The notes: generated by a model from the sequence alone, not told the origin. A stretch of DNA of 37,575 nt from a virus (IMGVR_UViG_3300022218_000001:71179-108753), one strand, 5' to 3'. Shown: positions 10,704-37,575, counted from the stretch's first letter. Numbers and translations are program-made.

Positions 10704-11434
10704 AGAAGTGGCAGCCGGCGATGAGGGACGGTCTCTGCGCAGCTTGTCCGAAGCATTCAACAATCGCGGGTGGTACGGTGGGTGGCGATTGTCCTTATTG
10801 TGGAGCTGCTCTCTACCTTTCAGATACGCTTGGAGCGCCAGTAAAAAACGACCCCTTTGATTTCTCTCGGCTTCCTACGTACCGAGACCCCATGTTCGAT
10901 CTTGCACCGAAGGCAAAGGTGTTCGTGGAGCTTGGCACCCAGAGGGGATTCACCGCCTATCGCGCAGCTCTCCATTTGCCTAACGCAACAATCCATTGCG
11001 TAGATCCATGGGCGAACTATGACGGCAAGCCGAACTATGTCGGCGACATGATTCTATGCTGGGAGATTTTCAAGGAACTCCACAAAGACAATCTCGCCAG
11101 TGGGAAGGTAGTCTCGCACAAGGGGTTCTCGTGGGATGTATCTGAAGAGTTCCACGAGCCAGTCGATCTTCTTTGGATCGATGGTGACCATACCTTTATT
11201 GGGGCTTTCCGAGATCTTTGTTTGTGGTTCCCAAAGGTCTCGGTTGGAGGAGTTGTCGTTGGCGATAATTATGAAATGCACGATGTGAGATTGGCCGTTG
11301 ACCGTTTCTGCCAGGTGCGTGGGATTATGCCAACAATTGGTAGGGCGCTCGGGAAATCTACGAAGAGAGAACAGTTCTGGTTCACGAAAAGGAGTGAGGA
11401 CGATGGTGAAGAAAAAACCCCTCTCGATTTATAA
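10700..11434 (+). CDS. Methyltransferase (Methyltransf_24-like) with N-terminal Zn ribbon
   Basis: CAAC-x14-CPYC, then VFVELGTQRG, HCVDPW, LLWIDGDHT and GGVVVGDNY. Confidence 0.8.
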   Translation: MKKWQPAMRDGLCAACPKHSTIAGGTVGGDCPYCGAALYLSDTLGAPVKNDPFDFSRLPTYRDPMFDLAPKAKVFVELGTQRGFTAYRAALHLPNATIHCVDPWANYDGKPNYVGDMILCWEIFKELHKDNLASGKVVSHKGFSWDVSEEFHEPVDLLWIDGDHTFIGAFRDLCLWFPKVSVGGVVVGDNYEMHDVRLAVDRFCQVRGIMPTIGRALGKSTKREQFWFTKRSEDDGEEKTPLDL

Positions 11435-13157
11435 GCCAAAGGTAGCGATCCTGACATCCCTGGTTGACTTTTCCCCTGCATACAGCCTCAGTGGGATAAT
11501 ACTTGACCAGGCTCGAGCACTGAAGCGGCACGGGTACGATTACGATCTCCTGTGTCTGAAAAGTTTCAATTCGAATGACAAGGATTTGATCGAGCGAGAG
11601 GGGCTCAGCATCAAATACATACTTCCGCAAACCCTCCTGGTTGATTATGGGGCAGAGCAAAAAGCGGATGAAGACCACGTAGATAAAAAGACTGGGAAAA
11701 AGATCGCTGGCTTTGAAACGCAGGTCGCCGTCCACTTCGAAGGAGACAAAGAAAAAGGCTGGGTGGGGTACAGAGAAGCCCTTGAGCCTTACGATACGAT
11801 CATCGACCATGACTTGATGTTCTTATCTTGGCACCTCCCTCAGAATGCTGCTATCCGAAGGTGTATCGATCTGTGGCCGGAGAAGAACTGGCTTCACTGG
11901 GTCCACTCTGGTCCATCCAATGCGCCTCGTAATTTATGCTATCCCTCAACACTCAGGTTCTCCGCTGCGCAGCACTCTACCTATGTTTACCTGAATTGCG
12001 CCCAGGCTCATGAGTATGCGCTGATGATCTCAGCTCAGAACACAGCCGTGCGAACAGTGTATAATCCAAAGGACGTCCGTGATGTTTGGAATTTCTCGGA
12101 ACTGGCGCAAGATCTTATCAGTCGTTACGGGCTCATGGATCATCAAATCCTCGAGGTGTACCCATTCTCAACTCCCCGATGGCATGACAAAGGAGTCCGC
12201 CATCTTATGCGGATCTTTGGTTTTTGGAAAAAGATGAAAATTAGGGCGAAGCTTGTGCTTGTCAATGCCCATTGCAACAGCCCTCGTGACCAGGCGGACA
12301 TTGACGGGATTGAAGCTTACGCCAAAGTCTGTGGGCTGGAGCTTGATCACGATGTCATTTTAACATCACGATTCGCAGATGAGACTGACCAGAAAACTCT
12401 CCGCTACACCGTCCCATTCAGGGCTGTCCGAGAGCTTGTGATGCTTTCAAACATATTTATTTTCCCATCGGTATCTGAGTGCTGCTCCTTGATTCAAGCC
12501 GAGGCGAGCATGAGCGGGAAGTTCATGGTTCTTAATCGTGACTTCAGCCCGATGCTTGAGTTCTGCACAGAGGGGGTGATGACTTACGAGTTCACCATCA
12601 ACGATCCAAATGCGAACCCTGAATACTACCAATGCTTGGCTCGCGAGATTTGGGCAAACTTCCAAGCGGAATCCTCCATCATGAACCGGACGAATGCAAT
12701 CACCCGTGTCTACAACCGAGACTGGATCTTCGAGAACCAATTTGAGCCGTTACTTTATATCGGGTTCGATAAAAGAAAAAAGCCAGCCGCCAAACCGGCA
12801 CCTCGAGAAGTTCTCAGGCCAGAGTTCGTCAATGACGAAATGGGGCACAAAACAGCGCCCCAGCCAGACCTATCAATTGAGACCCCTGACGGTACGACCA
12901 TTCCGCTAAAGCTTGTCATGGCGACAGAGACGACGCCACCTGAATCAATCATCGCCGAAGAATCTCCCCCTGGGGCGGACGGTGAAGAGCCAAACTACGA
13001 AGACCCATGGGACGGGATGGAATGCTCGATATTTGGGTCATGCACGTCTGAGCAGAAAGTCCAATGCTATGAGCAGGCTGGGCACTGTCTCGTCCTTGAT
13101 GAGATCGACCATCGCGAGCGTGTCGCAGAGGCCCGGGCGAACGCTGGGAAAAAATGA
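11403..13157 (+). CDS. Large GT-B/GT4-like glycosyltransferase with acidic, Cys-containing C-terminal extension
   Basis: ATG at 11403 follows GAGGA. Contains VYNPKD, KGVRHL, ELVMLSNIFIFPSVSECCSLIQAEASMSGK (GT4 ExxxxxxxE-type motif). Confidence 0.75.
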   Translation: MVKKKPLSIYKPKVAILTSLVDFSPAYSLSGIILDQARALKRHGYDYDLLCLKSFNSNDKDLIEREGLSIKYILPQTLLVDYGAEQKADEDHVDKKTGKKIAGFETQVAVHFEGDKEKGWVGYREALEPYDTIIDHDLMFLSWHLPQNAAIRRCIDLWPEKNWLHWVHSGPSNAPRNLCYPSTLRFSAAQHSTYVYLNCAQAHEYALMISAQNTAVRTVYNPKDVRDVWNFSELAQDLISRYGLMDHQILEVYPFSTPRWHDKGVRHLMRIFGFWKKMKIRAKLVLVNAHCNSPRDQADIDGIEAYAKVCGLELDHDVILTSRFADETDQKTLRYTVPFRAVRELVMLSNIFIFPSVSECCSLIQAEASMSGKFMVLNRDFSPMLEFCTEGVMTYEFTINDPNANPEYYQCLAREIWANFQAESSIMNRTNAITRVYNRDWIFENQFEPLLYIGFDKRKKPAAKPAPREVLRPEFVNDEMGHKTAPQPDLSIETPDGTTIPLKLVMATETTPPESIIAEESPPGADGEEPNYEDPWDGMECSIFGSCTSEQKVQCYEQAGHCLVLDEIDHRERVAEARANAGKK

Positions 13158-13225
13158 AAAAAAAGAAGGTTGCCGCTCGGGAAGCGGCCAACATCCGAAA
13201 ATTTGGCAAAGGAGCCATGCGCTGA
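13154..13225 (+). CDS. Possible 23-aa basic micro-ORF (MKKKKVAAREAANIRKFGKGAMR)
   Basis: ATGA-coupled to the upstream stop and fills the gap before the next RBS. It is below the ORF-track cutoff. Confidence 0.3.
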   Translation: MKKKKVAAREAANIRKFGKGAMR

Positions 13226-13248
13226 GTCAAAACATAGGAGATAGGACC

Positions 13249-13851
13249 ATGAAGAAGACTGTATTTTTTGATCTTGAGACTGGAGGACTAACGCCAGGCG
13301 TTCATCCGATCATTCAGTTTGCAGGCATCGCTGTAGACGAGAAGTTCAAGGTACAAGAAGAGCTTGAGATAAAGCTTCAATTCGACATTGGTGAATGCAC
13401 CGCTGAGGCCTTGGCTGTAAATTCATTCGACCCTGAAGTCTGGGAGAAAGAATCCTTTTCTCAGATCAGTGGCATGAAGGTGATTTCTGCATTTCTAAAG
13501 CGTCATGCCACCGTAAAGTTAATCAGCAAGCGTGGGAGTCCGTACTACGTTGCTCTTATGGCTGGTCACAATGCGTCGAACTTTGATGGTCCCATGCTCC
13601 AGGCGTGGTACAAGAAAGCCGACGAGTTCCTGCCTGGCTACTTCAGGGTGCTTTGCACGTCGCAGCTTGCTCAGTGGCATTTCTACAATCATCCGAATCC
13701 GCCGGAAAATATGAAGCTTGGGACGTTATGCAGGTACTTTGGCGTTCATCTTTCAGAGCAAGCGGCTCATGACGCTCTGGCGGATGTGCGAGCGAACGTC
13801 AAGCTTGCGCGCGTGCTTCTGGAGGGACGTACAATTTCGGAGCCTGTCTAA
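13249..13851 (+). CDS. DEDDh 3'-5' exonuclease (DnaQ-like)
   Basis: ExoI FFDLETGG, ExoII GHNASNFDGPML and ExoIII AHDALADV. AGGAG RBS precedes ATG 13249. Confidence 0.9.
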   Translation: MKKTVFFDLETGGLTPGVHPIIQFAGIAVDEKFKVQEELEIKLQFDIGECTAEALAVNSFDPEVWEKESFSQISGMKVISAFLKRHATVKLISKRGSPYYVALMAGHNASNFDGPMLQAWYKKADEFLPGYFRVLCTSQLAQWHFYNHPNPPENMKLGTLCRYFGVHLSEQAAHDALADVRANVKLARVLLEGRTISEPV

Positions 13852-14480
13852 TGAGTAGTGAATTCAATGCGGTTTACCACCACAGGCTGCGTTATTTCTT
13901 AACGCCGCAGTTTGATATATATCGAAACATTCGGAGATTCGTTGCGTCAAAAGAGCCGGACTGGGCGATCGACGAATTTCTCTCTGTGCTTGATTATGGG
14001 TGTGGGAATGGAGTCGGCAGTCTGCTGTTAAAACATGACGGCTGGGAGATCGTAGGCATCGACTCCGACGAAGAGGCCATCGCGTTTGCTGCCGATTCTT
14101 GGGGGCACTTGGTTGAATTCAAGCATGAAGACTGGACCGCCCGTTCACACTTAGAATCATCGGACGCAGCCCGCTACCAGAGGCGTTACGACGTGGTTGT
14201 CTGCCTTGAAGTTATTGAGCATGTTGCGGATCCGCTCTTACTTCTTCAGTCTCTTCAGAATGCTTGCAAGACAAAGGCTAATGTTTTTATTTCAACGCTA
14301 AACCATAACAGCCAATACCGAAAGAACAGAGGGCATGTTGGTAAGTTCCATGTTCAAGATTTCCGGTTCCTGGTCGAAAAAGTCTTCGGCGATGTTCGAA
14401 TCTTCAATTATGACTTCAGTGAAGAACTCAGCGACGATTCGACTTTAACCCCAATGCTTGCTATCTGCCAAGGAGGCTGA
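13851..14480 (+). CDS. Class I SAM-dependent methyltransferase
   Basis: VLDYGCGNG, IVGIDSD and YDVVVCLEVIEHV. Confidence 0.85.
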   Translation: MSSEFNAVYHHRLRYFLTPQFDIYRNIRRFVASKEPDWAIDEFLSVLDYGCGNGVGSLLLKHDGWEIVGIDSDEEAIAFAADSWGHLVEFKHEDWTARSHLESSDAARYQRRYDVVVCLEVIEHVADPLLLLQSLQNACKTKANVFISTLNHNSQYRKNRGHVGKFHVQDFRFLVEKVFGDVRIFNYDFSEELSDDSTLTPMLAICQGG

Positions 14481-14482
14481 GT

Positions 14483-15406
14483 GTGAGGACTGGGTTCATC
14501 AGGCTTACAGATGAGGATGTCTCCTTTGCCCGCAAGGTCGCAGGCCGCCGACACAACGAGGCAATTGATCAAGGGCGTGAAGACAAGCATGGACTCAAGG
14601 CCAGGGGCCGAGGTGAGATGCAGGAGCATGACTTAGGGGCACTTGGGGAATTGGCTGTTGCTCGCCTCTGGGGCGTTGAGTGGCCTGCACACATCAATAC
14701 ATTCAAGTCTATTCCGGACCTTGCAGAATGGGAAATAAGAACGCGGAGCCGTCTTTATTACGAGCTTCTCATTCGGCCAGACGATCCGGACGATCGGCCC
14801 TTCGTTCTTGTCCACCTTGTCTCGTACCCCCATGCCTTTAATGTAACTGGATGGATGACTGCTGGTGATGCAAAGCAAAAGGAGTGGAAGAAAGAACATG
14901 GAGGTAGGCCTCCTGCCTACTTCCCTCCAAACTCCGAGCTACGTGACTTCGATCCGTATGATGCAAGCCACGCCATTGGACAGGCGATCAGTGACGCCTA
15001 TATCTTGAGCTATGAAGAACGCAAAGACTTGGACGACGAAGAACGTGAGCGTGATGAGCATGAAAAGTTCGCAATATCGCTTAGGGTCCAGGAAGAAGAT
15101 GATGCTCGTCGCTGGAAAGAATTTATCGACAAGCATGGCCCACTTCTTGCCCGAACAAAAGTGGAGTATTTTTCTGAAGGACATCCCTACGCAGGTTTTT
15201 CCAAGACCACTCATACAACTCCTGACCCGCTTCGAGCACAGAAGTGTATTGAGGAGGCTGAGGAATTTTGCAGAAAGCGAGATGCTTGGATTGAGCAATT
15301 TGTCGGGCCTATTCATCCAAAGCGTCGAAAGTGGCGTTCACAGAGGCAGAAGGCTGCACTTATGGACCAAGAGGCGCAGCTCTCCGGAAAGCGCAAAAGT
15401 AGATGA
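14483..15406 (+). CDS. Phage protein, putative PD-(D/E)XK-like nuclease N-terminal domain plus charged C-terminal extension
   Basis: GALGELAV...PDLAEWEIRT pattern (helix-Glu, PD, ExR). GTG start. Confidence 0.45.
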   Translation: MRTGFIRLTDEDVSFARKVAGRRHNEAIDQGREDKHGLKARGRGEMQEHDLGALGELAVARLWGVEWPAHINTFKSIPDLAEWEIRTRSRLYYELLIRPDDPDDRPFVLVHLVSYPHAFNVTGWMTAGDAKQKEWKKEHGGRPPAYFPPNSELRDFDPYDASHAIGQAISDAYILSYEERKDLDDEERERDEHEKFAISLRVQEEDDARRWKEFIDKHGPLLARTKVEYFSEGHPYAGFSKTTHTTPDPLRAQKCIEEAEEFCRKRDAWIEQFVGPIHPKRRKWRSQRQKAALMDQEAQLSGKRKSR

Positions 15407-16149
15407 CACATGAGGTTCGAAACGTTTACGACCTTGAGGGCTTGGAAAAAGACCGGCGTCTCTGGATCGTAGCTCCTGGGCCAACTTCTTTAGCTTTAAA
15501 GAAATGGGCGCATCTCATGGTTGGGGAGACTGTCATTGCGCTGAATAGTGCGCTTGAAATTATTCCAAAGCCCACTTACTGGCTTTATGCAGACAAGCGG
15601 TTTTCTTGGCTTTATGGCCATGAGCTTCATGGCGATAAGGGCAGGATGAAGCCAGGGCTTTCAACTCCGCATCGAGTCATTGTCCCTCACCATCAGACAA
15701 AAAAGATGCAGCATTACTATGCTGGAGGGGAATTATATTCATTTCATTTTCAGATGGAAATTTCTCGCAGACTGCCGGTAAAGGACCGCGAGGGAAAACC
15801 GTTTTGGTATGCTCCAACCTACCGTTTTATTCCAGGCCATGCTTCTGTAGCCTCAACTGCCTGCAGCATAGCTTGCTTGATGCGTCCACGGGTCGCGGTG
15901 CTTGTCGGGGTCGATTTTGCCATGCCAGACGATGTTTACTACCATCCAGAGGTGAAAAAAAACTTAGGTCCAACAATGAAGACACGCGCTCTTGATAGTG
16001 GTTTATCTTGGTTTCGAGGGGCTTTGACTAAGCGCGGTGGAATCTGGCCTGGGCTAAGGCTTATTACCACATCTGTACATTTGGCAAGTAGGGCACCTGT
16101 TGTTCATCGGAATTGGGAAGAAATAGAGAATGGAGATGACATGCCATGA
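15403..16149 (+). CDS. Maf/DUF115 (MptE-like) protein, putative CMP-nonulosonate transferase #3
   Basis: LWIVAPGPTS, VIALNSAL, YWLYADKRF and AVLVGVDF. Confidence 0.65.
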   Translation: MTHEVRNVYDLEGLEKDRRLWIVAPGPTSLALKKWAHLMVGETVIALNSALEIIPKPTYWLYADKRFSWLYGHELHGDKGRMKPGLSTPHRVIVPHHQTKKMQHYYAGGELYSFHFQMEISRRLPVKDREGKPFWYAPTYRFIPGHASVASTACSIACLMRPRVAVLVGVDFAMPDDVYYHPEVKKNLGPTMKTRALDSGLSWFRGALTKRGGIWPGLRLITTSVHLASRAPVVHRNWEEIENGDDMP

Positions 16150-16334
16150 ATGTAGAACGAGCAATCGAGCAGCTTAGGGAGCTTCCGGATCTTTACGACT
16201 TGGAGATGGACTGCCCGGAGTCTCCAGATAAATGCGTGCCTGTGGACCTTGTCAATATCTCTCTGGCTGGCAACCTTAGAGTCTTGTTGACATTTGAGCC
16301 GTTCGAGCATGATCGAGATTGCCCTTTAGGATGA
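16146..16334 (+). CDS. Small acidic hypothetical protein
   Basis: 62 aa with ATGA overlaps at both ends. Confidence 0.5.
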   Translation: MNVERAIEQLRELPDLYDLEMDCPESPDKCVPVDLVNISLAGNLRVLLTFEPFEHDRDCPLG

Positions 16335-17047
16335 AAGCGAAGATACCAAACTGGGAAGGTTGGATGAAAAGCCACTCTTTCGATGATGGGCCAGTTGATC
16401 CTGACATCGTCGAGCTGCAAGAGCACATCCGTAGAAGGGTGCATTCGCGCAAGCGACAGTTTACCAGTTGGATTCGTCAAGGGGTCCTGGCTGATAGTCC
16501 CATTGCCACTTACGCATTTGGGCCGATCAACCTTCCATGCGAGCCGAAGCTTTTTACTTCGTCCAGGTGGAATGAGCGCAGAACGAATATCCCCCTTCCG
16601 CACGACAGGGAATCCTGGATGCTCGTTCACCGCTACTGGAAGGGCTCCAATAGCTATAGGGGCATCAAAACTCATATTGAGCAATATGGGATGCGTCGTC
16701 CAATTTTTGCTGACATGTTTGTCAATTACGATCCATCGAACAAAAAATTAATGCATCGTTGCTTTGCCTGGCAGGGCGAGAACTGGCCCTGGCCTGTCCT
16801 CATCCTTCGGACAGGTAACGAACGAATCATGATGGCAATGTTTGAGTGGGACTGGATCACAGTCCCGATCATCATACTTGCGAGGGACTGTGGCTTTGAT
16901 CCTGCGATGACTGCTGTATGGAAACTCATCCATGAGCGCAGCAAAATTGGCGGAGTATCGCGCGATATTTGCCGCCTCGCTGATGATAAAGGGGATTTGG
17001 ATATTGGGCTGAACTCTATTTTAGAAGGAATGAACCATGACGGATAG
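16331..17047 (+). CDS. Hypothetical protein with possible ParB/Srx-like domain
   Basis: IKTHIEQYGMRRPI...LILRTGNERIMMA...ITVPIII resembles the ParB N-terminal pattern (GxxxPI...GxxR...VP). Confidence 0.45.
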   Translation: MKAKIPNWEGWMKSHSFDDGPVDPDIVELQEHIRRRVHSRKRQFTSWIRQGVLADSPIATYAFGPINLPCEPKLFTSSRWNERRTNIPLPHDRESWMLVHRYWKGSNSYRGIKTHIEQYGMRRPIFADMFVNYDPSNKKLMHRCFAWQGENWPWPVLILRTGNERIMMAMFEWDWITVPIIILARDCGFDPAMTAVWKLIHERSKIGGVSRDICRLADDKGDLDIGLNSILEGMNHDG

Positions 17048-18398
17048 ACTAAAAGCCGGGGCTGGCCACATAGACATGCTGATCGACGATACAGGGCAGC
17101 GGCCAAAAGTCTCTGTTGTCCTTGGTGTTCGAAATGAGTACCCAGTCATTCTCGGGACAATGTTCAGCTTTATTGATGAGCTTGAATTCTGGGGTTATCC
17201 GTGGGAACTTATCGTAGTCGACAACATGGGGACTGATGACACTCGGCATATTCTTCGGGACAAGTTTCGACGCTGGATCCGAGAGGACCGGCTGAAAGTC
17301 CTCGAGTACGATGACAGAGGTGCTAATGTAACAGTCAGGAATATCGGAGCGCGAGCAGCTACCGGGGATGTTGTCTTCCTCTCAGATGGGCATAACGCCG
17401 TGGCTACAGGCACTTGTCATGGGATGATCCAGGGCTGGCTGAAGCGTGGCGGCCTGTGGCATTCAGCCATCCATATTTGGGGTGACACCAGAGATATCCG
17501 TTGCTATGGGTATACCTTGAGACTCAAGGAACGCTTTTGGGGGAATCTTTCTAGGGGTGTGCCAAAGGAGATCGCCGTCCAGCCAGATGCCACGTATTCA
17601 GCGCCTCGTGTCCCTTTCTATCGAGTCCCAATGGCAAGCCATTGCGCCCTCATGGCCGGGCGTGAAGAATATCTTGATTTCAGGGGCTATTGCGAAGAAT
17701 TCAAGTGCTACGGGGGTGGTGAGCCATACCTCGATATGCTCTGGTGGCTGTTGGGCAAGGAAGTCTGGATCTTCGGCCAAGGGCTCATACGGCATGCCTT
17801 TGGCGTAAACCCGCGCTGGGATGAGCAAAAGAGGCCAGCGCGCATCGAGGATTGGCCAAAGCGCGGTTCGAAGCAGGTGCTCCCTGCCATCGAGGAGCTG
17901 TTCAATAATCCAGAAAAAAGCAAGGTTCGGGGACTTTTGAAAAAATGTCCGGAAAGATGTCACCCGTTGATCCGTGGCTTGATGAAAGACGACAACCTCG
18001 AAATAGACGAAAAAATAGAAGAAGTAAAAAAACAAATCCCAAAGCGAGTCCGCTCCCATGTCTACCACCGCGACGGACACACGAGTGCCGACCTTCATCC
18101 GGGAGATGAGTACCTGCGCTATTCTCGTGGGTACAGTTGGACAAATGACCAATTTCAATTCAACTTCATGCTTTCAGCCTACTGCATAGGGGGCTACGAC
18201 TGGCTCCAGCAAAGATACGAAGTCTATTACCAGGACCGCAAAGGCAACAAAAAGTACGTAGAGGACTTACAGAAGATGCGTCAAGAGGTTTTGCGAGTTG
18301 GGGCTCCTTGGCGAAAATTCATCCAAGAACGACAAATTATGACGCTTGATGAACTTCTGGAACGTAAGCCCTGGGAGAAGTACGACGATCTGGTATAA
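17037..18398 (+). CDS. GT-A glycosyltransferase (GT2/GT27-like) with polypeptide GalNAc-transferase-like motifs
   Basis: VSVVLGVRNE, LIVVDN, RNIGARAATGDVVFLSDGH (DxH), PMASHCALMAGREEY, YGGGEPYLDMLWW and IRHAF. Confidence 0.8.
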   Translation: MTDRLKAGAGHIDMLIDDTGQRPKVSVVLGVRNEYPVILGTMFSFIDELEFWGYPWELIVVDNMGTDDTRHILRDKFRRWIREDRLKVLEYDDRGANVTVRNIGARAATGDVVFLSDGHNAVATGTCHGMIQGWLKRGGLWHSAIHIWGDTRDIRCYGYTLRLKERFWGNLSRGVPKEIAVQPDATYSAPRVPFYRVPMASHCALMAGREEYLDFRGYCEEFKCYGGGEPYLDMLWWLLGKEVWIFGQGLIRHAFGVNPRWDEQKRPARIEDWPKRGSKQVLPAIEELFNNPEKSKVRGLLKKCPERCHPLIRGLMKDDNLEIDEKIEEVKKQIPKRVRSHVYHRDGHTSADLHPGDEYLRYSRGYSWTNDQFQFNFMLSAYCIGGYDWLQQRYEVYYQDRKGNKKYVEDLQKMRQEVLRVGAPWRKFIQERQIMTLDELLERKPWEKYDDLV

Positions 18399-18500: not shown

Positions 18501-18848
18501 ATGGCTAGTATATATTCCATCGTTGGGTGGCGTGCCTGGTATTCAGGCGGCCGAAAGTTTGATAGTGCGACAACGGCCTGGAAGTCTCTGCCCGAGAAGG
18601 GGGTGATAGGGTTCGTCCTCTACCAGAGAGAGAAGCAGCGTCGGCGCATAATGACCGGCGTTACGCTTTACTGGCAGAGCGACGACCTATTCTGCTGCGA
18701 CAACACCGAAGACGCAGACATCCCGGAAGGGCTCGACTCCAGTCGCATCAAGCGTGGCAAGTGGGTCTCCGACGAGGAGTACGGGGCGGCTCAAGAAGAG
18801 ATGCGGGATGCCATGGTCTCCCCAACGAACGAAGAGACCAGAATTTAA
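18501..18848 (+). CDS. Hypothetical Trp/Tyr-rich protein
   Basis: 115 aa with a GGAGG RBS at 18491-18495. Confidence 0.6.
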   Translation: MASIYSIVGWRAWYSGGRKFDSATTAWKSLPEKGVIGFVLYQREKQRRRIMTGVTLYWQSDDLFCCDNTEDADIPEGLDSSRIKRGKWVSDEEYGAAQEEMRDAMVSPTNEETRI

Positions 18849-18860
18849 GGGGAGGCTCTG

Positions 18861-21800
18861 ATGGCAAATCGTCAATTTTACCTTGAGGACGATTATCATC
18901 CAGGATGGGCGCCGGGAACTAACTGGACATACTCCCTCAACCAGTCGCCCGTAGCTGAAAATCCGATTGGCGCGCCTATCACTGGGACTCAGACAGAAAC
19001 AGATTACGCAATCGACACGGCGGCGTGCGGTGAGTCGGACTGGGACGGAACGTGGACAGGGCAAATTGACATCTCGACCGGCGTCAACAAGGTTTACTGC
19101 CGAGTCGGGCTCGTTGCCTTTAATTCAAGCATAACAGAAGGGCCGTTCTGGTCCGACGAGGGGCAATTCGAGATTGAGATTGCGCAAGCGTACAGCTTGA
19201 CGTGGACGGGCCTCAACTGGTCGGTCGCCGGCTCGAGCGACTATGTCGCGATGGTCTTCGAGTGGTTTAACGATAACCATGGCGATATGACGATCTATGT
19301 CGACTCGAACGCAACCTATATCATAAGTCCGTGGGCAGGGCCGACAACATCTGCGTCGACTTCGAAGTCTACGACGAGATCAACGACGAAATCGACATCG
19401 CGCTCGACATCGAGATCTTCTTCGGCTTCTTCGACAAGGTCGACATCGGACTCGACGACAAAATCAACGACGAAATCGACATCGAAGTCCACAACCCGGT
19501 CTTCGTCAGCGTCGACGACTCGTTCAACTTCGATGTCTTCGACGAGGTCGACATCAGCAACTACGACACCTGGCCCTTCAGAAGAATTCATCCTTATTCG
19601 TGACAGCCAGTCTATCTCTACGATTGACGGTGACGGGGCAGAAGTTACAGTCACGCTGTCCGGTACATACCCGAACTCGAACCTGAAAGTCGGGCAGCGA
19701 ATCCGCATTTCCGGGACGACGAACTACAATGGTGTTCACGTCATTACTCAGGTTGACAGCCAGTCCCAGTTTCGTTATGCGGACACTCCTACCCCACTCG
19801 AAAATGTCGGGACCGCTGGTGGGCACTATACCAACCTCTATGACTTTGAGGTTAGTGAGCGCGAAGATCTGACATCGTCAAACAAGATCAAAGTTGCTGA
19901 GATCTATGACGATTTCCCAGGCGGCATCAGGCATTTGGCGCAGGTCGAATTTGACGATGCAAACTGGACAACGGACGCAACTCGATACATCAAAATTGAT
20001 GTTCCAAGAGCAGAGCGAGGTCAACTTGGCCGAGCATACAACACTGGCCCATGGATGTTCTGGGAGGGGGTAACTTTTCCCGGTGGGCATGAAAACGGTT
20101 GCATCCAGCTTTCATCCGCTCTTGATTTTGAGGCCTATGGGATTGAGATTGACGGTTCTGCGAGAACTGATGCAAACAACGCGAAGCGCCTCTTCCAGGT
20201 CTGGAGCACAACGGCTGGCGGGGGGTCCTGTTATCTTCGAGATTGTGTCTTTCATTCAAACGATGAAGATGCAGGGAACGCCGGCGACGGGGTAGACATC
20301 GACGCTGGAACAGCGGCTGGCTATGTCTTCATCGCAGAGAACTGCATTTCCGCATCTGGTACCGATGACGCCTGGAGCTTCTCTGTAGACAACGGCGGGA
20401 CTTTCGACTCTTCATCCTATTGCCACAATTGCATTGCTTACGATTATAATGGCAATGCAACGCCTCAAGGCTGGCATGGGATAACAGATGAAAACGTTAT
20501 TGACATCCGGAACTGCTACTCTGGTAGCAATGGCGGTGCAGACTATGAGGGCAGTGGGACTATGTGGGGGACGGCGGAGAATAATATCTCGGCCGACACC
20601 ACCGCTACGAACATTGGGTCAGGGACGAACAGTATCGCAGCAGCGGATGTTTTTACCGATCCTGCGAATGGCGATTTCACTCCGCTTGCTTACACAGATG
20701 GCCCCAGTGCGAATCCACTTTTTAACGCTGGTACGCCCAATGGTGATACGTTAACAGACATCGATGGAACACCGTGGGGGACCGACATTGATGTTGGAGT
20801 TTTTGCTACACCGGAGTTCCAAGGAACCTCTGCCTCCACTACACGCTCATCCTCTGCATCTACGACGCGCTCGACATCAGCTTCGGCCACAGCCTCAAGT
20901 GCATCATCTTCTCAGTCCACGACACGTTCATCTTCTGCGTCTTCAACGAGATCGACATCTGCCAGTACGACTATTACAGATCCTCCGTTCTTCGAAGATA
21001 CCGATTGGAATATGGAGGAGATCGACAATGGCGATCTCTCTAGTGGTGGGACTCAGCACACAGAAAGCTCTGGCCTCTGTTACGCCAGAGACCGTGATTG
21101 CATTGTCAGTGTTTCTGACGATCTATCAATCCGGGAGTTTGAACGCATTGGATTCACTCCCGTAGGTGATGCTGTCGCCCTTGGAAATGGGATGCTGGAC
21201 ACCGAGGGTATTGTTTATATCGGAGATTGGTTTACAGACTTCGATTTTGCAATACTCGACGAGGGCGCGAACGGAGGGGCCTTTACTCGCATCCATTTAG
21301 TTCCATTTGCACCTGGCCAGACAACCACCCCAACTGGCGTCGTTACGCATGTCCTCAGAAAGATTCCAAGGCACTCTGGGACCTATGGTGGGGAGGGCTG
21401 TGAAGGGCTGGCCTATGACCCTGAACGCGATCTGTTCTATGTCTCCAATCAGGCAGACACAGAAGCGGACGCTGGGATGTGGGAAGTTGATCTCAATACT
21501 ACAGACACCGATGGCGACCCAACGCAGACGTTTCTTTACTCATGGACGGGTGCTGGGGTTGTAAACGGGGGTGCCCCATCGCCAGCAAGTCCAGTGGCGC
21601 TTTCTGACCTGTTTCATGGCTCGCAGCTTGGCGATGCACATCCACGGTCTCCGTTTAATCGGTCGCTCTTTCTTCTGACACGAGACGGCAGTGCATCTCA
21701 GCGCATTGTGATGCAGCTCGATGTTCTTTCAGGTATCATCCTTTCTGTCTTTCAGCATGGAGAAGCGGATCAGGTCGAGGGTCTTTGCTTCGATAATTTG

Positions 21801-23600
21801 TCGACTCGTGGCGACATGTTCCTTTCCAAGGAGCAGCTATCTGGCGGCACCCCTAATGTTTTTAGGTATTCTGTTCTTGGTGGAGCAGCGACAAGCTCAA
21901 TGTCGACTTCTCGTTCCACCTCTAACTCTACTACCAGGTCCACCAGTGCCACCCAGGTAACGTCAGCATCAACGACGAGGTCTACATCTATGTCCTCGTC
22001 GGCTTCGACGACCAGATCTTCGTCGGTTTCGACGACTCGGTCCTCGTCGGTTTCGACCACCAGGTCGACCACAAAATCAACGACTCGAAGCTCGTCCGTT
22101 TCGACCACAAAGTCGACCACAAAATCGACGACTCGCAGTTCCTCTGTCTCAACGACAAAATCGACGACTCGGTCCTCGTCGGTTTCGACCACCAGGTCGA
22201 CCACCAAATCGACGACTCGGTCCTCGTCGGTTTCGACCACAAAATCGACTACGAAGTCGACGACTCGCAGTTCCTCTGTCTCAACGACAAAATCGACGAC
22301 TCGGTCCTCGTCGGTTTCGACCACCAGGTCGACCACCAAATCGACGACTCGAAGCTCGTCCGTTTCGACCACAAAGTCGACCACAAAGTCGACGACTCGC
22401 AGTTCCTCTGTCTCAACGACAAAATCGACGACTCGGTCCTCGTCGGTTTCAACCACCAGGTCGACCACGAAGTCAACTACTCGCAGCTCGTCTGTTTCGA
22501 CGACTCGCTCTACGTCTAAATCGACGACTCGCAGTTCGTCAGTTTCAACAACAAAGAGTACATCTCATTCGAGTTCTGTCTCGACTACCCGCAGCACATC
22601 TGCCACGGCATCCGCCTCATCTGCTTCATCGTCGCTTTCAACTACTCGCAGCTCATCGGTTTCAACAACCCGATCCAGCTCGGTTTCGACAACAAAGTCA
22701 ACTACGAAGAGCACTACGAAATCGACAACGAAGTCGACCACACGTAGCTCAAGTGCTTCAACAACAAGGTCAACATCTGCGTCGTCTACCCGCAGCTCCT
22801 CCGTCTCAACGACAAAGTCTACGAGCAAAAGCACGACGAAAAGCTCCTCTGTTTCCACAACACGAAGCTCTTCAGTCTCGACCACCAAATCAACGACGAA
22901 ATCAACGACGCGGTCCTCGTCAGCTTCCACCACCCGTAGCTCTTCTGCTTCAACAACAAAGACAACAACGAAGAGTACGACTCGGTCCAGCTCGGCCTCG
23001 ACGACCCGCAGCTCCAGCGTGTCTACGACTAGGAGCAGTTCTGTCACAAGGTCTGCATCATCGGCCTCTTCATCGCTATCGACAACGAGATCTTCGTCTG
23101 TTTCGACCACTCGCAGCTCATCTGTATCGACAACAAAGTCAACAACGAAGAGCACAACCCGGTCAACATCGAAATCGACGACCCGCAGCTCCAGCGTTTC
23201 TACGACCAAATCAAGCTCGGTTTCATCGACTCGTTCATCGTCCGTCTCTACAACTCGATCTTCGTCAGTTTCCACAACGAAATCGACAACTGCAAGCACG
23301 ACGAGGTCGTCATCTCTATCGTCTACAAAGTCCAGCTCTGTTTCCTCGACAAAGTCTACGACCAAGTCCACAACACGCAGCTCGTCGCTGTCATCTACAA
23401 AGTCAACGACACGCAGCTCCTCTGTATCTACAACAAAGTCCTCCTCTCTTTCCTCGACTCGATCAACATCGATGTCTACTCCGATACCACCAGAGGGGGC
23501 GTTTTCTTTAATCCTCGATGACATTTCAAATGAACTGACGCTTGAGGATGTGTCAGTCGAACTAACCCTTGACGTTATTTCCTCAACGGAGGTGAATTGA
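18861..23600 (+). CDS. Giant multidomain Ser/Thr-rich (mucin-like) protein, putative virion fibre or decoration protein
   Basis: 1579 aa with a GGAGG RBS and no signal peptide. Layout: beta-rich N-domain, S/T linker, beta-helix-like domain ending TDIDGTPW..DVGVF, S/T linker, SdiA-regulated/YjiK-like propeller, 530-aa S/T tract, 39-aa acidic tail. Confidence 0.8.
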   Translation: MANRQFYLEDDYHPGWAPGTNWTYSLNQSPVAENPIGAPITGTQTETDYAIDTAACGESDWDGTWTGQIDISTGVNKVYCRVGLVAFNSSITEGPFWSDEGQFEIEIAQAYSLTWTGLNWSVAGSSDYVAMVFEWFNDNHGDMTIYVDSNATYIISPWAGPTTSASTSKSTTRSTTKSTSRSTSRSSSASSTRSTSDSTTKSTTKSTSKSTTRSSSASTTRSTSMSSTRSTSATTTPGPSEEFILIRDSQSISTIDGDGAEVTVTLSGTYPNSNLKVGQRIRISGTTNYNGVHVITQVDSQSQFRYADTPTPLENVGTAGGHYTNLYDFEVSEREDLTSSNKIKVAEIYDDFPGGIRHLAQVEFDDANWTTDATRYIKIDVPRAERGQLGRAYNTGPWMFWEGVTFPGGHENGCIQLSSALDFEAYGIEIDGSARTDANNAKRLFQVWSTTAGGGSCYLRDCVFHSNDEDAGNAGDGVDIDAGTAAGYVFIAENCISASGTDDAWSFSVDNGGTFDSSSYCHNCIAYDYNGNATPQGWHGITDENVIDIRNCYSGSNGGADYEGSGTMWGTAENNISADTTATNIGSGTNSIAAADVFTDPANGDFTPLAYTDGPSANPLFNAGTPNGDTLTDIDGTPWGTDIDVGVFATPEFQGTSASTTRSSSASTTRSTSASATASSASSSQSTTRSSSASSTRSTSASTTITDPPFFEDTDWNMEEIDNGDLSSGGTQHTESSGLCYARDRDCIVSVSDDLSIREFERIGFTPVGDAVALGNGMLDTEGIVYIGDWFTDFDFAILDEGANGGAFTRIHLVPFAPGQTTTPTGVVTHVLRKIPRHSGTYGGEGCEGLAYDPERDLFYVSNQADTEADAGMWEVDLNTTDTDGDPTQTFLYSWTGAGVVNGGAPSPASPVALSDLFHGSQLGDAHPRSPFNRSLFLLTRDGSASQRIVMQLDVLSGIILSVFQHGEADQVEGLCFDNLSTRGDMFLSKEQLSGGTPNVFRYSVLGGAATSSMSTSRSTSNSTTRSTSATQVTSASTTRSTSMSSSASTTRSSSVSTTRSSSVSTTRSTTKSTTRSSSVSTTKSTTKSTTRSSSVSTTKSTTRSSSVSTTRSTTKSTTRSSSVSTTKSTTKSTTRSSSVSTTKSTTRSSSVSTTRSTTKSTTRSSSVSTTKSTTKSTTRSSSVSTTKSTTRSSSVSTTRSTTKSTTRSSSVSTTRSTSKSTTRSSSVSTTKSTSHSSSVSTTRSTSATASASSASSSLSTTRSSSVSTTRSSSVSTTKSTTKSTTKSTTKSTTRSSSASTTRSTSASSTRSSSVSTTKSTSKSTTKSSSVSTTRSSSVSTTKSTTKSTTRSSSASTTRSSSASTTKTTTKSTTRSSSASTTRSSSVSTTRSSSVTRSASSASSSLSTTRSSSVSTTRSSSVSTTKSTTKSTTRSTSKSTTRSSSVSTTKSSSVSSTRSSSVSTTRSSSVSTTKSTTASTTRSSSLSSTKSSSVSSTKSTTKSTTRSSSLSSTKSTTRSSSVSTTKSSSLSSTRSTSMSTPIPPEGAFSLILDDISNELTLEDVSVELTLDVISSTEVN
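19341..19580 (+). repeat. Ser/Thr low-complexity tract 1 (80 aa)
   Basis: STTKSTTRSS-type tetrapeptide modules. Confidence 0.9.
20826..20978 (+). repeat. Ser/Thr low-complexity tract 2 (51 aa)
   Basis: TSASTTRSSSASTTRSTS... Confidence 0.9.
21891..23480 (+). repeat. Ser/Thr low-complexity tract 3 (530 aa), including a 132-bp tandem repeat
   Basis: Modules STTK/STTR/SSSV/SSSA. Near-identical 132-bp units start at 22038, 22170 and 22302, with a partial copy at 22434. Confidence 0.95.
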
Positions 23601-23962
23601 TGAGTAGAGAGATCAAGCAATGCTTGAAGTTCAACGTTGACACGATCGTCATTCGAAAGTTTCGTGTCAGAGACTTAAACAAATCGACGGCTTTCGTATT
23701 GGCGTCTGGCACCTGGAGTCTAAAGCGGCGCCCTACTGGAATTGAAATTGGTACAGGCTCCGTTGCTGTGAACAATGCCGATGTCGATCAGTATGGGAAT
23801 ACAATTTCGACGGTCTCAATGACCATTAATCTGCGCAACACTGATACTTTCGAGAAGGGCTCGTACTATCTGGTTATCGAAACGGTGCTTGCGACTCAAC
23901 AAACAGACTACTTCCGCATTCCGGTTGAGTTGGTTGATTATAGAGAGAAGGAGGCTGCCTAA
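23600..23962 (+). CDS. Hypothetical beta-rich structural protein (possible Ig-like/BppU-like adaptor)
   Basis: TGATG-coupled to the giant gene, with an alternating beta-strand pattern. The fold call is a guess. Confidence 0.45.
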   Translation: MSREIKQCLKFNVDTIVIRKFRVRDLNKSTAFVLASGTWSLKRRPTGIEIGTGSVAVNNADVDQYGNTISTVSMTINLRNTDTFEKGSYYLVIETVLATQQTDYFRIPVELVDYREKEAA

Positions 23963-33718: not shown

Positions 33719-34735
33719 ATGTCGGTCTTTGGCGTTCTGAACAGAGCAGACCACAACAATAAAGGGTCGATCCCATATGACCACGGGACGGGTCTGTTCC
33801 CGACGAACAAAGTTCTCTTAAGCCCATATCAAGCTGTCGCTCGAATAAAGACAGCTACAAAATTCCGGTTTGGTGTTTCTTCAGGTCGGCTCTGCCTTGC
33901 TGTCCTTGAAAACCATCCATTCCCGCCTGGAGCAGACGAGTCTAACGATACGGCATCTGAACAAAACCCACTTGGGCTTTCAGAGTTTGGAGTTTACAGC
34001 TCGCCTACCGGCCTCTCAGATGTCATTTCAATCTCTGGCACAGACAATTTCAACGGGGAGCATGAAATCATCGCCCTGGATGGCATACCAGGCAGAAAAG
34101 ACGGCAAGGCTCTAATCTTCCTTGACTTCATCAACCCCCCGAATGAGACCGCCTCCGCATTCTCTGAGGAGGATGTCGGCTGGCTATACCTTGCACCACG
34201 CTCAGTAGTAGGAGAAAAGCTTATGACACCCGCTCGTGTGATGAGTCACCCGAGCTTTCCGCAGCGAGAAGGCGAGGGTGTCTACACATACCCATACCCA
34301 CCTGATGTTACTCGGAATTTTGTATTTGGGCCAGCTCGGAAGCTCGATGGTTCTGTGCAGCGAACGCTTGGGACTTCGGTCCTAATAGCACAACCACAAC
34401 TCGACGATGATGTCATCATTACAGAGGCGTGGCTTGGCGGGAATCGTGAACTATCGACGCTCACTGAAATGTTTCGAGTCCTGTGGCAGTACTGGACAAC
34501 CCTTCCTGCTCCCGGCCAGGTTCTTGGCTGGGAGCCACGCGATAGAACAGGTGATCGCTATCATATCCAAATTGTTCAAGTACAGCTTGGTGGACTTGAC
34601 TTTGAATATGAAGAAGTGCGTGAATTCGCAGACCGATCCGAGGGCTCGTACTTGGATACGCAATTGACAGTAAAATTCAAATTTGCGCGGATTACCAGGC
34701 CTCCAACTCCAAGAATTACACTGGTGGGAAGATGA
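33719..34735 (+). CDS. Putative distal tail (Dit-like) protein with N-terminal accessory domain
   Basis: Located after the TMP. The C-terminal half is beta-rich and the N-terminal half carries an ISGTDNFNG module. The Dit call rests on position. Confidence 0.35.
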   Translation: MSVFGVLNRADHNNKGSIPYDHGTGLFPTNKVLLSPYQAVARIKTATKFRFGVSSGRLCLAVLENHPFPPGADESNDTASEQNPLGLSEFGVYSSPTGLSDVISISGTDNFNGEHEIIALDGIPGRKDGKALIFLDFINPPNETASAFSEEDVGWLYLAPRSVVGEKLMTPARVMSHPSFPQREGEGVYTYPYPPDVTRNFVFGPARKLDGSVQRTLGTSVLIAQPQLDDDVIITEAWLGGNRELSTLTEMFRVLWQYWTTLPAPGQVLGWEPRDRTGDRYHIQIVQVQLGGLDFEYEEVREFADRSEGSYLDTQLTVKFKFARITRPPTPRITLVGR

Positions 34736-36561
34736 CGCGACAAGCCCAAGGGAACACAACGCATGACAAAATGTCTGCCCGCCTGGCTCTGGCTGGCGCA
34801 GATGTTTTGGGTCCAATTCTGCGAGGCCTTGGAGGCCGCATAGAAATTGAGATCCAGCGTGGTGAAGTCCTGGAGGATGTCCGCATCTTTAGTCTTGGCT
34901 CAAACGAATTCTCAAAGGAGCTTTTGCCCCTTGGTTCTTTTACGAACTTTGATGATGGCCGGCGTCTTTTCACGGTAGACATTGTCTACGGGATAGACAC
35001 TGATTATGGAGTCACCGGTGCTCCAGCAATCCGGAACTATCTCCAGTGGAAAGTAAAGCGGAAGGTCCCAGCGAACCCAGAAGGCAATCGCTTTGTTGAG
35101 AAGGCCTACTCAAATGATACTGAGGCGCAAAAGAACATATCGGACGCTGAGATGCGGCGTGATCGTAGCTGGTTTGCACCACGGGATTATACGCAGGCTT
35201 TCGTCGGTTCAGCTATTCCGCCAGGCGCAGAAGCGTCCGGGCTTACTTGGAGAGAAGACAACCAGACCCTTTATGTCCTCGGCGACAATCTCCACATGCG
35301 AGTCATGACAAGGGAGGGCGTTGTTGTGCAAGACGACATCAGCCTTGAGGGCCTTGGCATGGCGGACACTGAAGCCTTGGTCTACATGGGCTCCGATCGC
35401 TTCGCAGTGCTGGATGAGGGCGCGTCTGGCATAAGGCCGGTCCGCCTTCATCTTTTTCATCTTAAAAAGGGTGGAGACACTGTGACGCCATCTTTCGTTA
35501 AGACCTACACGCTATCTAAGATTGAAGAATCGCCAGGCGGCTATGGCGCAGAAGGCCTCGCCCATGACCGTATTACAGGCAAGTTCTATGTCGGCACGCA
35601 GCCAACCGGCGACGGAGAAGGCGGGCTGTGGGAGGTGGATATCCATGCAAAGGATACTGACGGAGAGGCGACACAAACGCTCCTTTACCGTTGGTACGAT
35701 TCCCTCATTGAGCCTGGTCATTTAGGCGCTGGTGCGATCCTTGGAGATCTTTATTTCTCTCACGACCTTGGTACAGGGGCGGCCAACCAGAGTCTCCTGT
35801 GCCACTTCAGGACGCCAGACGTTGGTGGTCCAGAGGCTATGCGCCAGGTTATTCAAATTGATAGAGAAACAGGGGTCTTTATTTCGAAGTACCACCACAA
35901 CCTTGGGGGTAAGTGGGAGGGCTTTACCCTTGATTACGATTCTGAAAGCATGTTCTTCGTACGCGAAGGCGGTGGTGCTAACCTTTCGCGTCACGACCAT
36001 ACGCAGTTCGAGGATGTTGAAATCTTCAGACGGCAATTCTTTGTGAAGGAGAGACCGGCTCGAGGCGGCATCTATATCAACAGCCAGGAAGCGCAGCAGG
36101 GCGAGGCTCGTGTCTTTGTTAACCCTTTGGATATAAATCGGTTCTCGAAAGACGCAACCATCGGCATTGGCATCTTACCTATCTTTAGCGACGAGCTATT
36201 TCTTGGGGGAGAATACGAAGGGACACTTGGGAAAAACATCGAGCTAAGACGGTTCATCGCACCCGAGACCCTCTTCGCTGAAAAAGGAAAGAAGCGCCCA
36301 AACCGCTATGCGACAACAGTACGAAACCACGGAGGAGCAAAGACAGTCGAGATATTCACCGACAGTCTCTACACCCCACCGGCTATCCCTGAGATGCTGA
36401 TTGAAGATCTCGGTGGCTACTACTGGCCGAGCCCATCCTTTGGTCTCCACTCTGTAACAGCACGGCTACGCGCCGAATGGGGGTCGCCAAACTATGTGGA
36501 TATCACTGGGTATGTTCGGTTTAAACAATTCAAGTGCCCTGAGCCAGAGGAGGAGGCCTAA
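34732..36561 (+). CDS. Tail-tip-associated protein with SdiA-regulated/YjiK-like beta-propeller
   Basis: AEASGLTW, DTEALVYMG, FAVLDEG, GAEGLAHD and KWEGFT. Homologous to the propeller in 18861-23600. Confidence 0.6.
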   Translation: MTRQAQGNTTHDKMSARLALAGADVLGPILRGLGGRIEIEIQRGEVLEDVRIFSLGSNEFSKELLPLGSFTNFDDGRRLFTVDIVYGIDTDYGVTGAPAIRNYLQWKVKRKVPANPEGNRFVEKAYSNDTEAQKNISDAEMRRDRSWFAPRDYTQAFVGSAIPPGAEASGLTWREDNQTLYVLGDNLHMRVMTREGVVVQDDISLEGLGMADTEALVYMGSDRFAVLDEGASGIRPVRLHLFHLKKGGDTVTPSFVKTYTLSKIEESPGGYGAEGLAHDRITGKFYVGTQPTGDGEGGLWEVDIHAKDTDGEATQTLLYRWYDSLIEPGHLGAGAILGDLYFSHDLGTGAANQSLLCHFRTPDVGGPEAMRQVIQIDRETGVFISKYHHNLGGKWEGFTLDYDSESMFFVREGGGANLSRHDHTQFEDVEIFRRQFFVKERPARGGIYINSQEAQQGEARVFVNPLDINRFSKDATIGIGILPIFSDELFLGGEYEGTLGKNIELRRFIAPETLFAEKGKKRPNRYATTVRNHGGAKTVEIFTDSLYTPPAIPEMLIEDLGGYYWPSPSFGLHSVTARLRAEWGSPNYVDITGYVRFKQFKCPEPEEEA

Positions 36562-36968: not shown

Positions 36969-37575
36969 ATGGCAACTGATCAGAAAATTGTCAGTGTCCG
37001 TGCTTCAGTAGCTATTGAGTGGATCGATGGCACTGAGAACGGCAACGCAGATGCTCGAGTCTACTTAGCATCAAGCTGGCCAAACAACAACCTCAAGGCC
37101 GGGCAGACAATTGTCATCTCCGGTACGTCAGACTTCAATGGGACCTTTGAGATTAAGTCTGTCGCATCGCAGAGTGAGTTTGTCATTGTCCATTCCGAGA
37201 ATAACCAAGAGGCGACGACAGACGGAACTGCCGGGGGCGACTACTCAAGCCTTGAGGATGCAGAGTCGAATGAACGCGCAAACCTGGTAACCTCCGATCA
37301 AGATATCATTTTTGAGATCTACAATGATTGGCAGGACGGCCTAACAGAGACGACGCAGATTCGATTCGATACGGCCAATTGGACGACCGATCGTGATCAC
37401 TGGATCATTATTCGCTCACCGGCAACAGATGTTGGCAGGCCTTGGATTGAGCATGACGGCCCAACGCTCCGCATGAATGGGGTGACGTTCCCCATTGGTG
37501 GCGAAGAGCATGGGTTTCTTCATTTTGATGATGATCTCGATTTCTTCCTCCAAGACTTTGAAATTGACGGCGATG
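36969..37575 (+). CDS. Partial ORF (runs off the window end), paralog of the second domain of the giant S/T protein; putative tail fibre/receptor-binding protein
   Basis: Not in the track. My translation is MATDQKIVSVRASVAIEWIDG...NNNLKAGQTIVISGTSDFNG...TAGGDYSSLEDAESNERANL...EIYNDW...FDTANWTTD...GVTFP, open to 37575. Confidence 0.75.
   Translation, partial: MATDQKIVSVRASVAIEWIDGTENGNADARVYLASSWPNNNLKAGQTIVISGTSDFNGTFEIKSVASQSEFVIVHSENNQEATTDGTAGGDYSSLEDAESNERANLVTSDQDIIFEIYNDWQDGLTETTQIRFDTANWTTDRDHWIIIRSPATDVGRPWIEHDGPTLRMNGVTFPIGGEEHGFLHFDDDLDFFLQDFEIDGD

Follow-up and report, generated by a model that had tools for sequence, protein, structure and literature searches.

A GT27-like glycosyltransferase encoded beside a giant Ser/Thr-rich fibre gene in an uncultured phage: probable glycosylation of the fibre

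The Ser/Thr-rich fibre gene and its glycan island

The locus belongs to an uncultured phage whose IMG/VR record of 108,753 bp is complete according to CheckV. We analyzed the final 37.6 kb of this record (37,575 nucleotides), which we refer to as the window; all of its long ORFs are located on the plus strand. A gene for a GT27-like enzyme lies in the late structural operon (Table 1), flanked by a glycan island on one side and by head-completion genes on the other, all on the same strand. The island, 5' of the enzyme gene, encodes a CMP-transferase, NeuB, an epimerase/dehydratase, and many SAM methyltransferases, in addition to proteins with weak MptE-like matches. Genes for a minor head protein, the major tail protein, the tape measure protein, and the distal tail follow 3' of the glycosyltransferase and fibre genes. 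The enzyme gene had been described in an earlier note on this DNA as the last glycan gene before a Ser/Thr-rich protein, and indeed a single 115-aa ORF, for which family searches gave no match, is all that separates the two. No terminator-like site was found on the plus strand in the intervals that lead from the enzyme gene via the 115-aa ORF to the fibre gene, and strong ribosome-binding sites precede the latter two. A homolog with 72% identity is present in a 4.3-Mb chromosome of Candidatus Latescibacterota, where the gene order is unchanged. Since this chromosomal copy sits within matching phage gene order, it represents a prophage, and the host of the window phage is probably a member of the same phylum.

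Table 1 Features of the glycosyltransferase and fibre region, with positions counted from the first nucleotide of the window.
Feature	Position	Strand	Details
GT4-like GT-B protein	11403..13157	+	Unannotated 585-aa ORF, conserved in the cassette, rival initiator; Atlas feature score 0.98, TM 0.66 to Glycos_transf_1 clusters
SAM-dependent methyltransferase	13851..14480	+	Part of the conserved cassette; Pfam Methyltransf_23, E 8.8e-21
Mini-Maf protein	15403..16149	+	Maf catalytic-domain fold, rival or capping transferase; two genes upstream of the GT27-like gene
GT27-like soluble GT-A glycosyltransferase	17037..18398	+	453 aa, ATG start
DxH metal-binding motif (predicted), D117-G-H119	17385..17393	+	No substitution in sets of 32 and 10 sequences; aligned to DxH of GalNAc-T4 and TgGalNAc-T3
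Y225-GGGEP-230, counterpart of the Gal/GalNAc-T motif WGGEN	17709..17726	+	Y225, G227, G228, and E229 invariant; HMMER alignment
H253, proposed third metal ligand, VGH.F equivalent	17793..17795	+	Invariant; aligned to GH of GalNAc-Ts
Lineage-specific helical insertion, residues 268-334	17838..18038	+	67 aa; columns filled in <30% of the family; helices 281-331 modelled
Family-conserved C-terminal module	18069..18395	+	Beta-meander and helices; invariant N376, G385, G386, W389, P445, W446
115-aa ORF between the glycosyltransferase and fibre genes	18501..18848	+	GGGAGG ribosome-binding site
Ser/Thr-rich fibre protein, proposed acceptor	18861..23600	+	1579 aa, 643 S+T residues
Ser/Thr tracts of the fibre	19326-19586, 20808-20990, 21876-23492	+	aa 156-242, 650-710, 1006-1544
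44-aa repeat in the fibre ORF	22029-22555	+	Four copies, one of them at 22029-22160

Two tail-distal ORFs encode paralogs of the globular domains of the fibre protein, one at 34732-36561 (36% identity, E 3e-34) and the other at 36969-37574 (40%, E 3e-33). In view of these common domains, the fibre is very likely part of the virion. The protein carries no signal peptide, so that any glycosylation would take place in the cytoplasm. Prolines are typical of GalNAc-T acceptor sites; they are absent from the tracts of the window, which contain R/K/V spacers and are cationic. The spacers vary among related loci, with none in L004-L006 and L008, A/Q in L012, and Y/A in L003. The density of Ser and Thr is thus the only property conserved among the tracts, which suggests that it is the hydroxyl groups that matter functionally.

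In order to examine the neighbourhood of the enzyme gene more broadly, related loci were collected from IMG/VR, public assemblies, and JGI metagenomes. In about 20 phage or prophage loci (27-84% identity), a Ser/Thr-rich ORF is located 0-2.5 kb downstream of the enzyme gene on the same strand, spaced by small ORFs only. The best 50-aa window of these downstream ORFs reaches an S+T fraction of 0.76-1.0. The loci in question are L002-L006, L008, L009, L011-L014, L024-L026, L029, L030, L037, L038, L043, and L044, some of which are perhaps close relatives. A maximum-likelihood tree resolved three groups of enzymes, namely subfamily A, which includes the window protein, subfamily B, and a distant clade (L005-L008), and each of the three shows the linkage to a Ser/Thr-rich gene. 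The members of subfamily B are paralogs that occur in tandem with subfamily A in several phages. The sole exception among loci with enough downstream sequence is L010, in which the enzyme is kept but a Ser/Thr-rich ORF is absent within 10 kb on either side. Locus L052 was left uncounted, as merely 1.9 kb of downstream sequence, with no Ser/Thr-rich ORF in it, is available. In public gene calls, Ser/Thr-rich ORFs are often missed, and spurious genes are called on the reverse strand inside the repeats.

Overall, the connection to a Ser/Thr-rich gene, which the earlier note had drawn from the window, is strongly backed by gene order. The position of the enzyme gene just upstream of a giant Ser/Thr-rich fibre gene in about 20 loci suggests that the fibre is probably glycosylated by the enzyme, and for questions of function we regard this gene order as stronger evidence than the fold discussed below. 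A tblastn search against 50,697 phage records returned a single distant relative, gp2 of Tunturiibacter phage Tunturi_4 (31% identity over 158 residues), whose gene is located between the terminase and portal genes without an adjoining Ser/Thr-rich gene.

Sequence and predicted structure of the enzyme

HMMER alignments to GalNAc-T4 and TgGalNAc-T3 reproduced the GT27-like order of motifs listed in the earlier note. VSVV..RNE of the phage enzyme corresponds to TSVII.FHNE, RNIGARAATGDVVFLSDGH to ARLIGATFATGDVLTFLDCH, with DGH as the DxH motif, PMASH to PTMAGG, YGGGEPYLD..WW to WGGENLELS..VW, with Y in place of W and P in place of N, and IRHAF to VGHVF. A single-sequence search of PDB sequences paired residues 23-256 with human GalNAc-T4 and placed DGH on DCH, YGGGEP on WGGEN, and IRHAF on VGHVF. 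With profile A1, which comprises 32 family members, fifteen GT27 chains were found in the PDB sequences (E 6e-16 to 8e-10, positions 5-240), whereas GT2 chains matched only the first ~100-130 positions (4-128) with E-values of 7e-9 or worse. The motif parallels to GT27 are well beyond chance, and the similarity is significant across the whole catalytic domain, at an identity of only 13-19%. D117, H119, E229, and H253 are invariant throughout the family, including members of 27-31% identity, and W168 is likewise an invariant residue. Judged by these alignments, the DxH motif and the distal histidine are predicted Mn2+ ligands, and the GGGE loop is the counterpart of WGGENxE. The stretch 'AGG' of the GalNAc-T sugar pocket corresponds to 'ASH' in the phage family.

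Among Pfam families, only PF00535 was assigned (residues 26-134, E 2.9e-12), and it is present in 32/32 members. Because GT27 enzymes match PF00535 as well, this assignment does not discriminate between GT2 and GT27. Glyco_transf_7C was not significant in the Pfam search (best E 0.072, two of the 32 members). Curated bacterial GT2 families of NCBIfam remained far below their thresholds, the best being TuaG (25 bits, cut-off 400), and PHROGs contained no match to the enzyme. As had been noted before, the enzyme lacks both a membrane anchor and a ricin domain. The maximal 19-residue Kyte-Doolittle mean is 1.11, in a protein of a phage with a bacterial host, which speaks against the type II anchor of GT27 enzymes; Ricin_B_lectin was not found by Pfam, and the helices of the catalytic domain end the protein. 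Regarding the insertion of ~130 aa proposed to precede a C-terminal helical part, the helices were confirmed (residues 370-443), but the insertion proper is shorter than stated. It is K/E-rich and helical, and is confined to six of the 32 members, all of them close relatives. Between insertion and helices lies a beta-meander (336-363) that is conserved in the family.

The AlphaFold model obtained from the family alignment has a pLDDT of 91.6 and a pTM of 0.87, and its structural alignment with the GalNAc-T1 catalytic domain extends to model residue 447 and thus into the C-terminal module. A comparison of GALNT with GT2 structures by Foldseek had been suggested as a check; among solved structures, no clustering with polysaccharide GT2s was seen, and the top 50 matches in the PDB are all GT27 ppGalNAc-Ts (E 3e-14 to 2e-11). 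In the structure comparison, the next chain beyond GT27 is WrtF with a score of 19.0, and classical GT2 structures (chondroitin/heparosan synthases, SpsA, TarP/TarS, cellulose/hyaluronan synthases) score 13-19. This leaves a Z gap of 9-11 units between GT27 and all other solved GT-A families, so that the modelled GT-A domain appears structurally nearest to GT27 among GT-A families. In agreement with this, GALNTs account for 29/30 of the top matches among Swiss-Prot models.

The earlier caveat that bacterial GT2 proteins share these features proved well founded. Predicted proteins of ~300 aa from phages, Bacillota, Actinomycetota, and Pseudomonadota superpose on the model as well as chordate GALNT clusters do (TM by query 0.58-0.62 for both, rmsd 2.1-2.7 for the bacterial and phage models), and many of these look-alikes carry Glyco_transf_7C. 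The best matches among AlphaFold DB clusters are bacterial multidomain proteins. That GT27 ranks first among solved structures may therefore be due in part to which proteins have been crystallised, and, as the ~300-aa bacterial and phage 'GT2' models are equally similar, a peptide acceptor is not established by the fold alone. These models place the enzyme in a larger group of prokaryotic and viral proteins with GT27 catalytic architecture. A complex predicted from the enzyme (alignment A1), fibre residues 140-260, and Mn received a score of 0.00, with a pLDDT of 25 for the partner, values that carry no weight either way as regards binding.

Candidate roles of the enzyme in fibre glycosylation

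The enzyme probably sugar-coats the adjoining Ser/Thr-rich fibre. In the mechanism that we propose, it would act as a soluble, cytoplasmic, metal-dependent GT-A enzyme with the catalytic-domain architecture of GT27 (nucleotide-binding half, DxH, GGGE loop, third His, and C-terminal helices), minus anchor and lectin domain. It would be expressed as a late gene along with those for the virion and, with a UDP-sugar as donor, would attach what is most likely a HexNAc straight to Ser/Thr hydroxyls of the three fibre tracts prior to assembly. Extension, capping, and methylation of the glycan would follow, carried out by the GT-B and mini-Maf proteins, together with NeuA/NeuB and the methyltransferases. 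By analogy with GT27, the donor would be UDP-HexNAc; an island GalE or 4,6-dehydratase-type enzyme and a CE4 deacetylase in L044 are weak hints of HexNAc chemistry. The replacement of 'AGG' by 'ASH' suggests that donor or specificity may differ from those of GalNAc-Ts. This replacement, the lack of prolines in the tracts, and locus L010 with its enzyme gene but no Ser/Thr-rich ORF all count against the proposed mechanism.

That the enzyme attaches the first sugar to the Ser/Thr tracts has, in our estimation, an even chance of being correct. More tentatively, the phage family might consist of true polypeptide HexNAc-transferases, a GT27 branch of prokaryotic viruses in which a minimal, lectin-free domain initiates mucin-type O-glycosylation within the cytoplasm of bacteria. 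Since a GT4-like GT-B and a mini-Maf are also encoded in the island, the role as initiating O-glycosyltransferase is one that we infer, as are the protein acceptor, the donor sugar, and the stereochemistry; what our data show are the fold, the conserved residues of the active site, the lack of both anchor and lectin domain, and the conserved order of genes.

The principal alternative is that the enzyme elongates a glycan on the same fibre, adding sugar onto sugar, and that either the GT-B or the mini-Maf is the initiator. GT4 includes GtfA, which initiates glycosylation on bacterial serine-rich-repeat (SRR) adhesins, and Maf proteins attach nonulosonic acids directly to Ser/Thr of flagellin. 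The GT-B family profile matches the window, L002-L009, L011-L014, and several new loci, yet not L010, the sole locus without a Ser/Thr-rich gene. Furthermore, the GT-B is part of the smallest cassette, that of L008, which comprises GT-B, methyltransferase, a short form of the GT27-like enzyme (298 aa), and the Ser/Thr-rich gene. A counterpart of the conserved methyltransferase adjoins the GT-B or a Maf-like gene in L009 and L011-L014. The occurrence of the fold in many ~300-aa bacterial GT2 proteins also speaks for elongation. Comparing the GT-B profile (A4) with solved structures revealed no relative by sequence.

On the other hand, the whole records of the distant clade, among them a 100% complete genome, contain no Maf-like genes, and the Ser/Thr-rich genes are still there. 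No member of the conserved GT-B family was found in L044 or L035, also when filters were switched off; L044 instead carries another enzyme, of the GT1 type, and a GT-B of the GT1/GT4 class occurs in nearly all related loci. The proposition that the GT27-like protein is the only glycosyltransferase always present is accordingly weakened by the GT4-like GT-B in most loci and the GT1-type enzyme in L044. It is, though, the one orthologous enzyme family that all loci with a Ser/Thr-rich gene have in common, and its gene is always the closest to the Ser/Thr-rich gene. In addition, the GT27 match spans the full catalytic domain, and every characterised GT27 enzyme has, to our knowledge, a polypeptide acceptor. 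Taking both sides into account, we consider elongation possible but rather unlikely, although a GT-B initiator like that of SRR adhesins is a serious contender.

We regard it as improbable that the acceptor is something other than a phage protein, such as a host surface polysaccharide or lipid-linked precursor, with surface conversion or superinfection exclusion as the outcome, or phage DNA. In line with such an acceptor, Pfam and NCBIfam similarities are generic for GT2 (teichuronic acid and EPS enzymes) and far under the cut-offs, the L010 gene has no Ser/Thr-rich gene nearby, and a related copy resides in the Latescibacterota chromosome. However, this copy lies within phage gene order and hence in a prophage, the enzyme has no membrane segment, and its gene is kept next to a Ser/Thr-rich ORF in about 20 loci and placed among late structural genes by the head-completion genes. 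Finally, the idea that the likeness to GT27 is the general GT-A fold of any GT2 enzyme, with coincidental motif parallels, fits the low identity and the GT2 label in Pfam but is very improbable given the Z gap to every other solved GT-A family, a profile match covering DxH, GGGE, and His where GT2 chains match the nucleotide-binding half only, and the invariance of these residues in the family.

If the enzyme initiates glycosylation of the fibre, it would provide a compact, soluble, lectin-free initiator that can be expressed in E. coli and would be useful for glycoengineering and studies of acceptor recognition. It would likewise offer a testable case of densely glycosylated phage fibres, possibly serving in shielding, adhesion, or host recognition, and a data point on the origin of the GT27 lineage. 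If it is a polypeptide HexNAc-transferase, the fibres would amount to phage 'mucins' with hundreds of O-glycans capped by methylated sialic-acid-like sugars, and the family would be relevant to a prokaryotic or viral source of animal GALNTs.

Comparison with known glycosylation systems

Mucin-type O-glycosylation initiated by GT27 enzymes is regarded as eukaryotic and Golgi-based. Experimental proof of phage self-glycosylation comes, as far as we know, from mycobacteriophages only, where it concerns short C-terminal tails. Our search of the literature yielded no paper on a GT27-like enzyme of a phage, on a Ser/Thr-rich glycoprotein fibre of a phage, or on their pairing.

GT27 enzymes use UDP-GalNAc to attach GalNAc to Ser/Thr residues in polypeptides by a retaining reaction, in contrast to GT2 enzymes (PF00535), which are inverting and of the DXD type. 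A few bacterial GT27 candidates are already listed in CAZy (PMC3178493). Compared with the ppGalNAc-Ts (mouse GalNAc-T1, 8v9q; human GalNAc-T2, 2ffu/4d0t; Toxoplasma GalNAc-T3, 8uhv), the phage enzyme has the DxH motif, the distal His, and the order of motifs in common. It differs, besides the low identity, in the GGGE loop that replaces WGGEN, in 'ASH' at the position of 'AGG', and in the helical insertion and beta-meander after the third His. Furthermore, it has neither the type II anchor nor the ricin-type lectin domain, and its location would be cytoplasmic instead of Golgi-based. As for GT27, a candidate substrate with dense Ser/Thr tracts exists, here encoded next door, but these tracts are proline-free and cationic. 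The ~300-aa GT2 proteins (many with Glyco_transf_7C) from the ESM Atlas and AlphaFold DB clusters superpose on residues ~20-446 of the phage enzyme with a TM by hit of 0.86-0.89. Like the phage enzyme, they are soluble and single-domain, and the short form in L008 has the same size; the window enzyme carries extra insertions.

In the Che8-type mycobacteriophages (Freeman et al. 2023, as cited in PMC12619734 and PMC11256854), virion proteins are glycosylated in the cytoplasm of the host by transferases that the phage itself encodes, to which the arrangement found here corresponds at the level of genes. According to the accounts in these two papers, the mycobacteriophage glycans are located on C-terminal extensions of capsid and tail-tube subunits, whereas in the window phage the acceptor would be a giant fibre encoded separately, and the transferase resembles GT27.

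In the SRR adhesin system of Gram-positive bacteria (GtfA/GtfB, GT4) and the Maf-flagellin system, a hyper-Ser/Thr-rich or Ser/Thr-exposed structural protein is O-glycosylated in the cytoplasm by dedicated enzymes whose genes adjoin its own, and the island of the window phage likewise encodes a GT4-like GT-B and Maf-fold proteins. An accessory Sec export system was not seen at this locus. Initiation in the adhesin and flagellin systems falls to a GT-B (GtfA) or a Maf protein, whereas in the phages described here the family that always accompanies the Ser/Thr-rich gene is a GT27-like GT-A enzyme.

Genes within and beside the glycan island

An ORF encoding a GT-B glycosyltransferase, which is kept together with the cassette of the Ser/Thr-rich (S/T) fibre gene, was assigned as GT4-like on the basis of Atlas features and structure; it carries no annotation and gave no match in Pfam. 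The protein has a C-terminal extension of ~120 aa with conserved Cys residues, whereas the GT-B of the distant clade of loci lacks this extension. The gene preceding the GT27-like enzyme overlaps its start by 11 nt and yielded only ParB_N/ParB-CE-like leads (score 0.92, TM 0.3-0.4); a role in glycan synthesis is not obvious. We also observed that an exonuclease-like ORF and a phrog_18407 protein are interspersed, inside the glycan island, among the GT-B, methyltransferase, and mini-Maf genes.

In the public gene calls of four related loci (L011-L014), long S/T-repeat ORFs are displaced by spurious reverse-strand ORFs rich in D, E, and V, and two ORFs of the same kind are present in the window.

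Positions of features in the window and in related loci
Feature	Locus	Position	Remark
GT-B ORF	window	11403-13157	~585 aa
RNase_T/DNA polymerase exonuclease-like ORF and phrog_18407 protein	window	12913-13851 and 14483-15406	
ParB_N/ParB-CE-like leads	window	16319-17047	
Artefact ORFs	window	21770-22468 and 22565-23620	minus strand
Paired GT27-like paralogs	L011	8937-11098	
Paired GT27-like paralogs	L012	8000-11095	
Paired GT27-like paralogs	L013	7184-9405	
Paired GT27-like paralogs	L014	4388-6722	
CE4 polysaccharide deacetylase, UDP-glucose dehydrogenase, epimerase	L044	8734-9264 and 1492-3934	distant-clade cassette
Prophage-like module	L009	1969219-1990316	CP070677.1
Distant relative of the GT27-like enzyme	L020	1567-2565	PP885687.1; 31% identity over 158 aa

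The module in other genomes

The whole module, comprising NeuA, NeuB, GT-B, methyltransferase, Maf-like, and GT27-like genes, a 1503-aa S/T protein, and head genes, is found in a prophage-like copy (L009). Its location in a 4.3-Mb chromosome of Candidatus Latescibacterota suggests this phylum as host. The distant-clade locus L044 encodes a deacetylase, a dehydrogenase, and an epimerase, which hints at HexNAc/HexN and uronic acid in the glycan. L010, a 50.8-kb contig from Logan SRR6242095, is the sole locus in which the GT27-like gene is retained, along with two genes of the Maf-like type, while neither an S/T-rich ORF nor the conserved GT-B lies within 10 kb on either side. In their place, it has acquired genes for DegT, an acetyltransferase, and GT9. 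In the cultured Acidobacteria phage Tunturiibacter phage Tunturi_4 (L020), a distant relative of the enzyme is flanked by terminase and portal genes; this phage could lend itself to work on GT-A enzymes that phages encode in their head module.

Paired GT27-like paralogs

Several relatives encode two GT27-like paralogs per phage, one each of subfamily A, which includes the window enzyme, and subfamily B, arranged in tandem or nearly so. This pairing is reminiscent of the division of labour among GALNT isoforms in animals.
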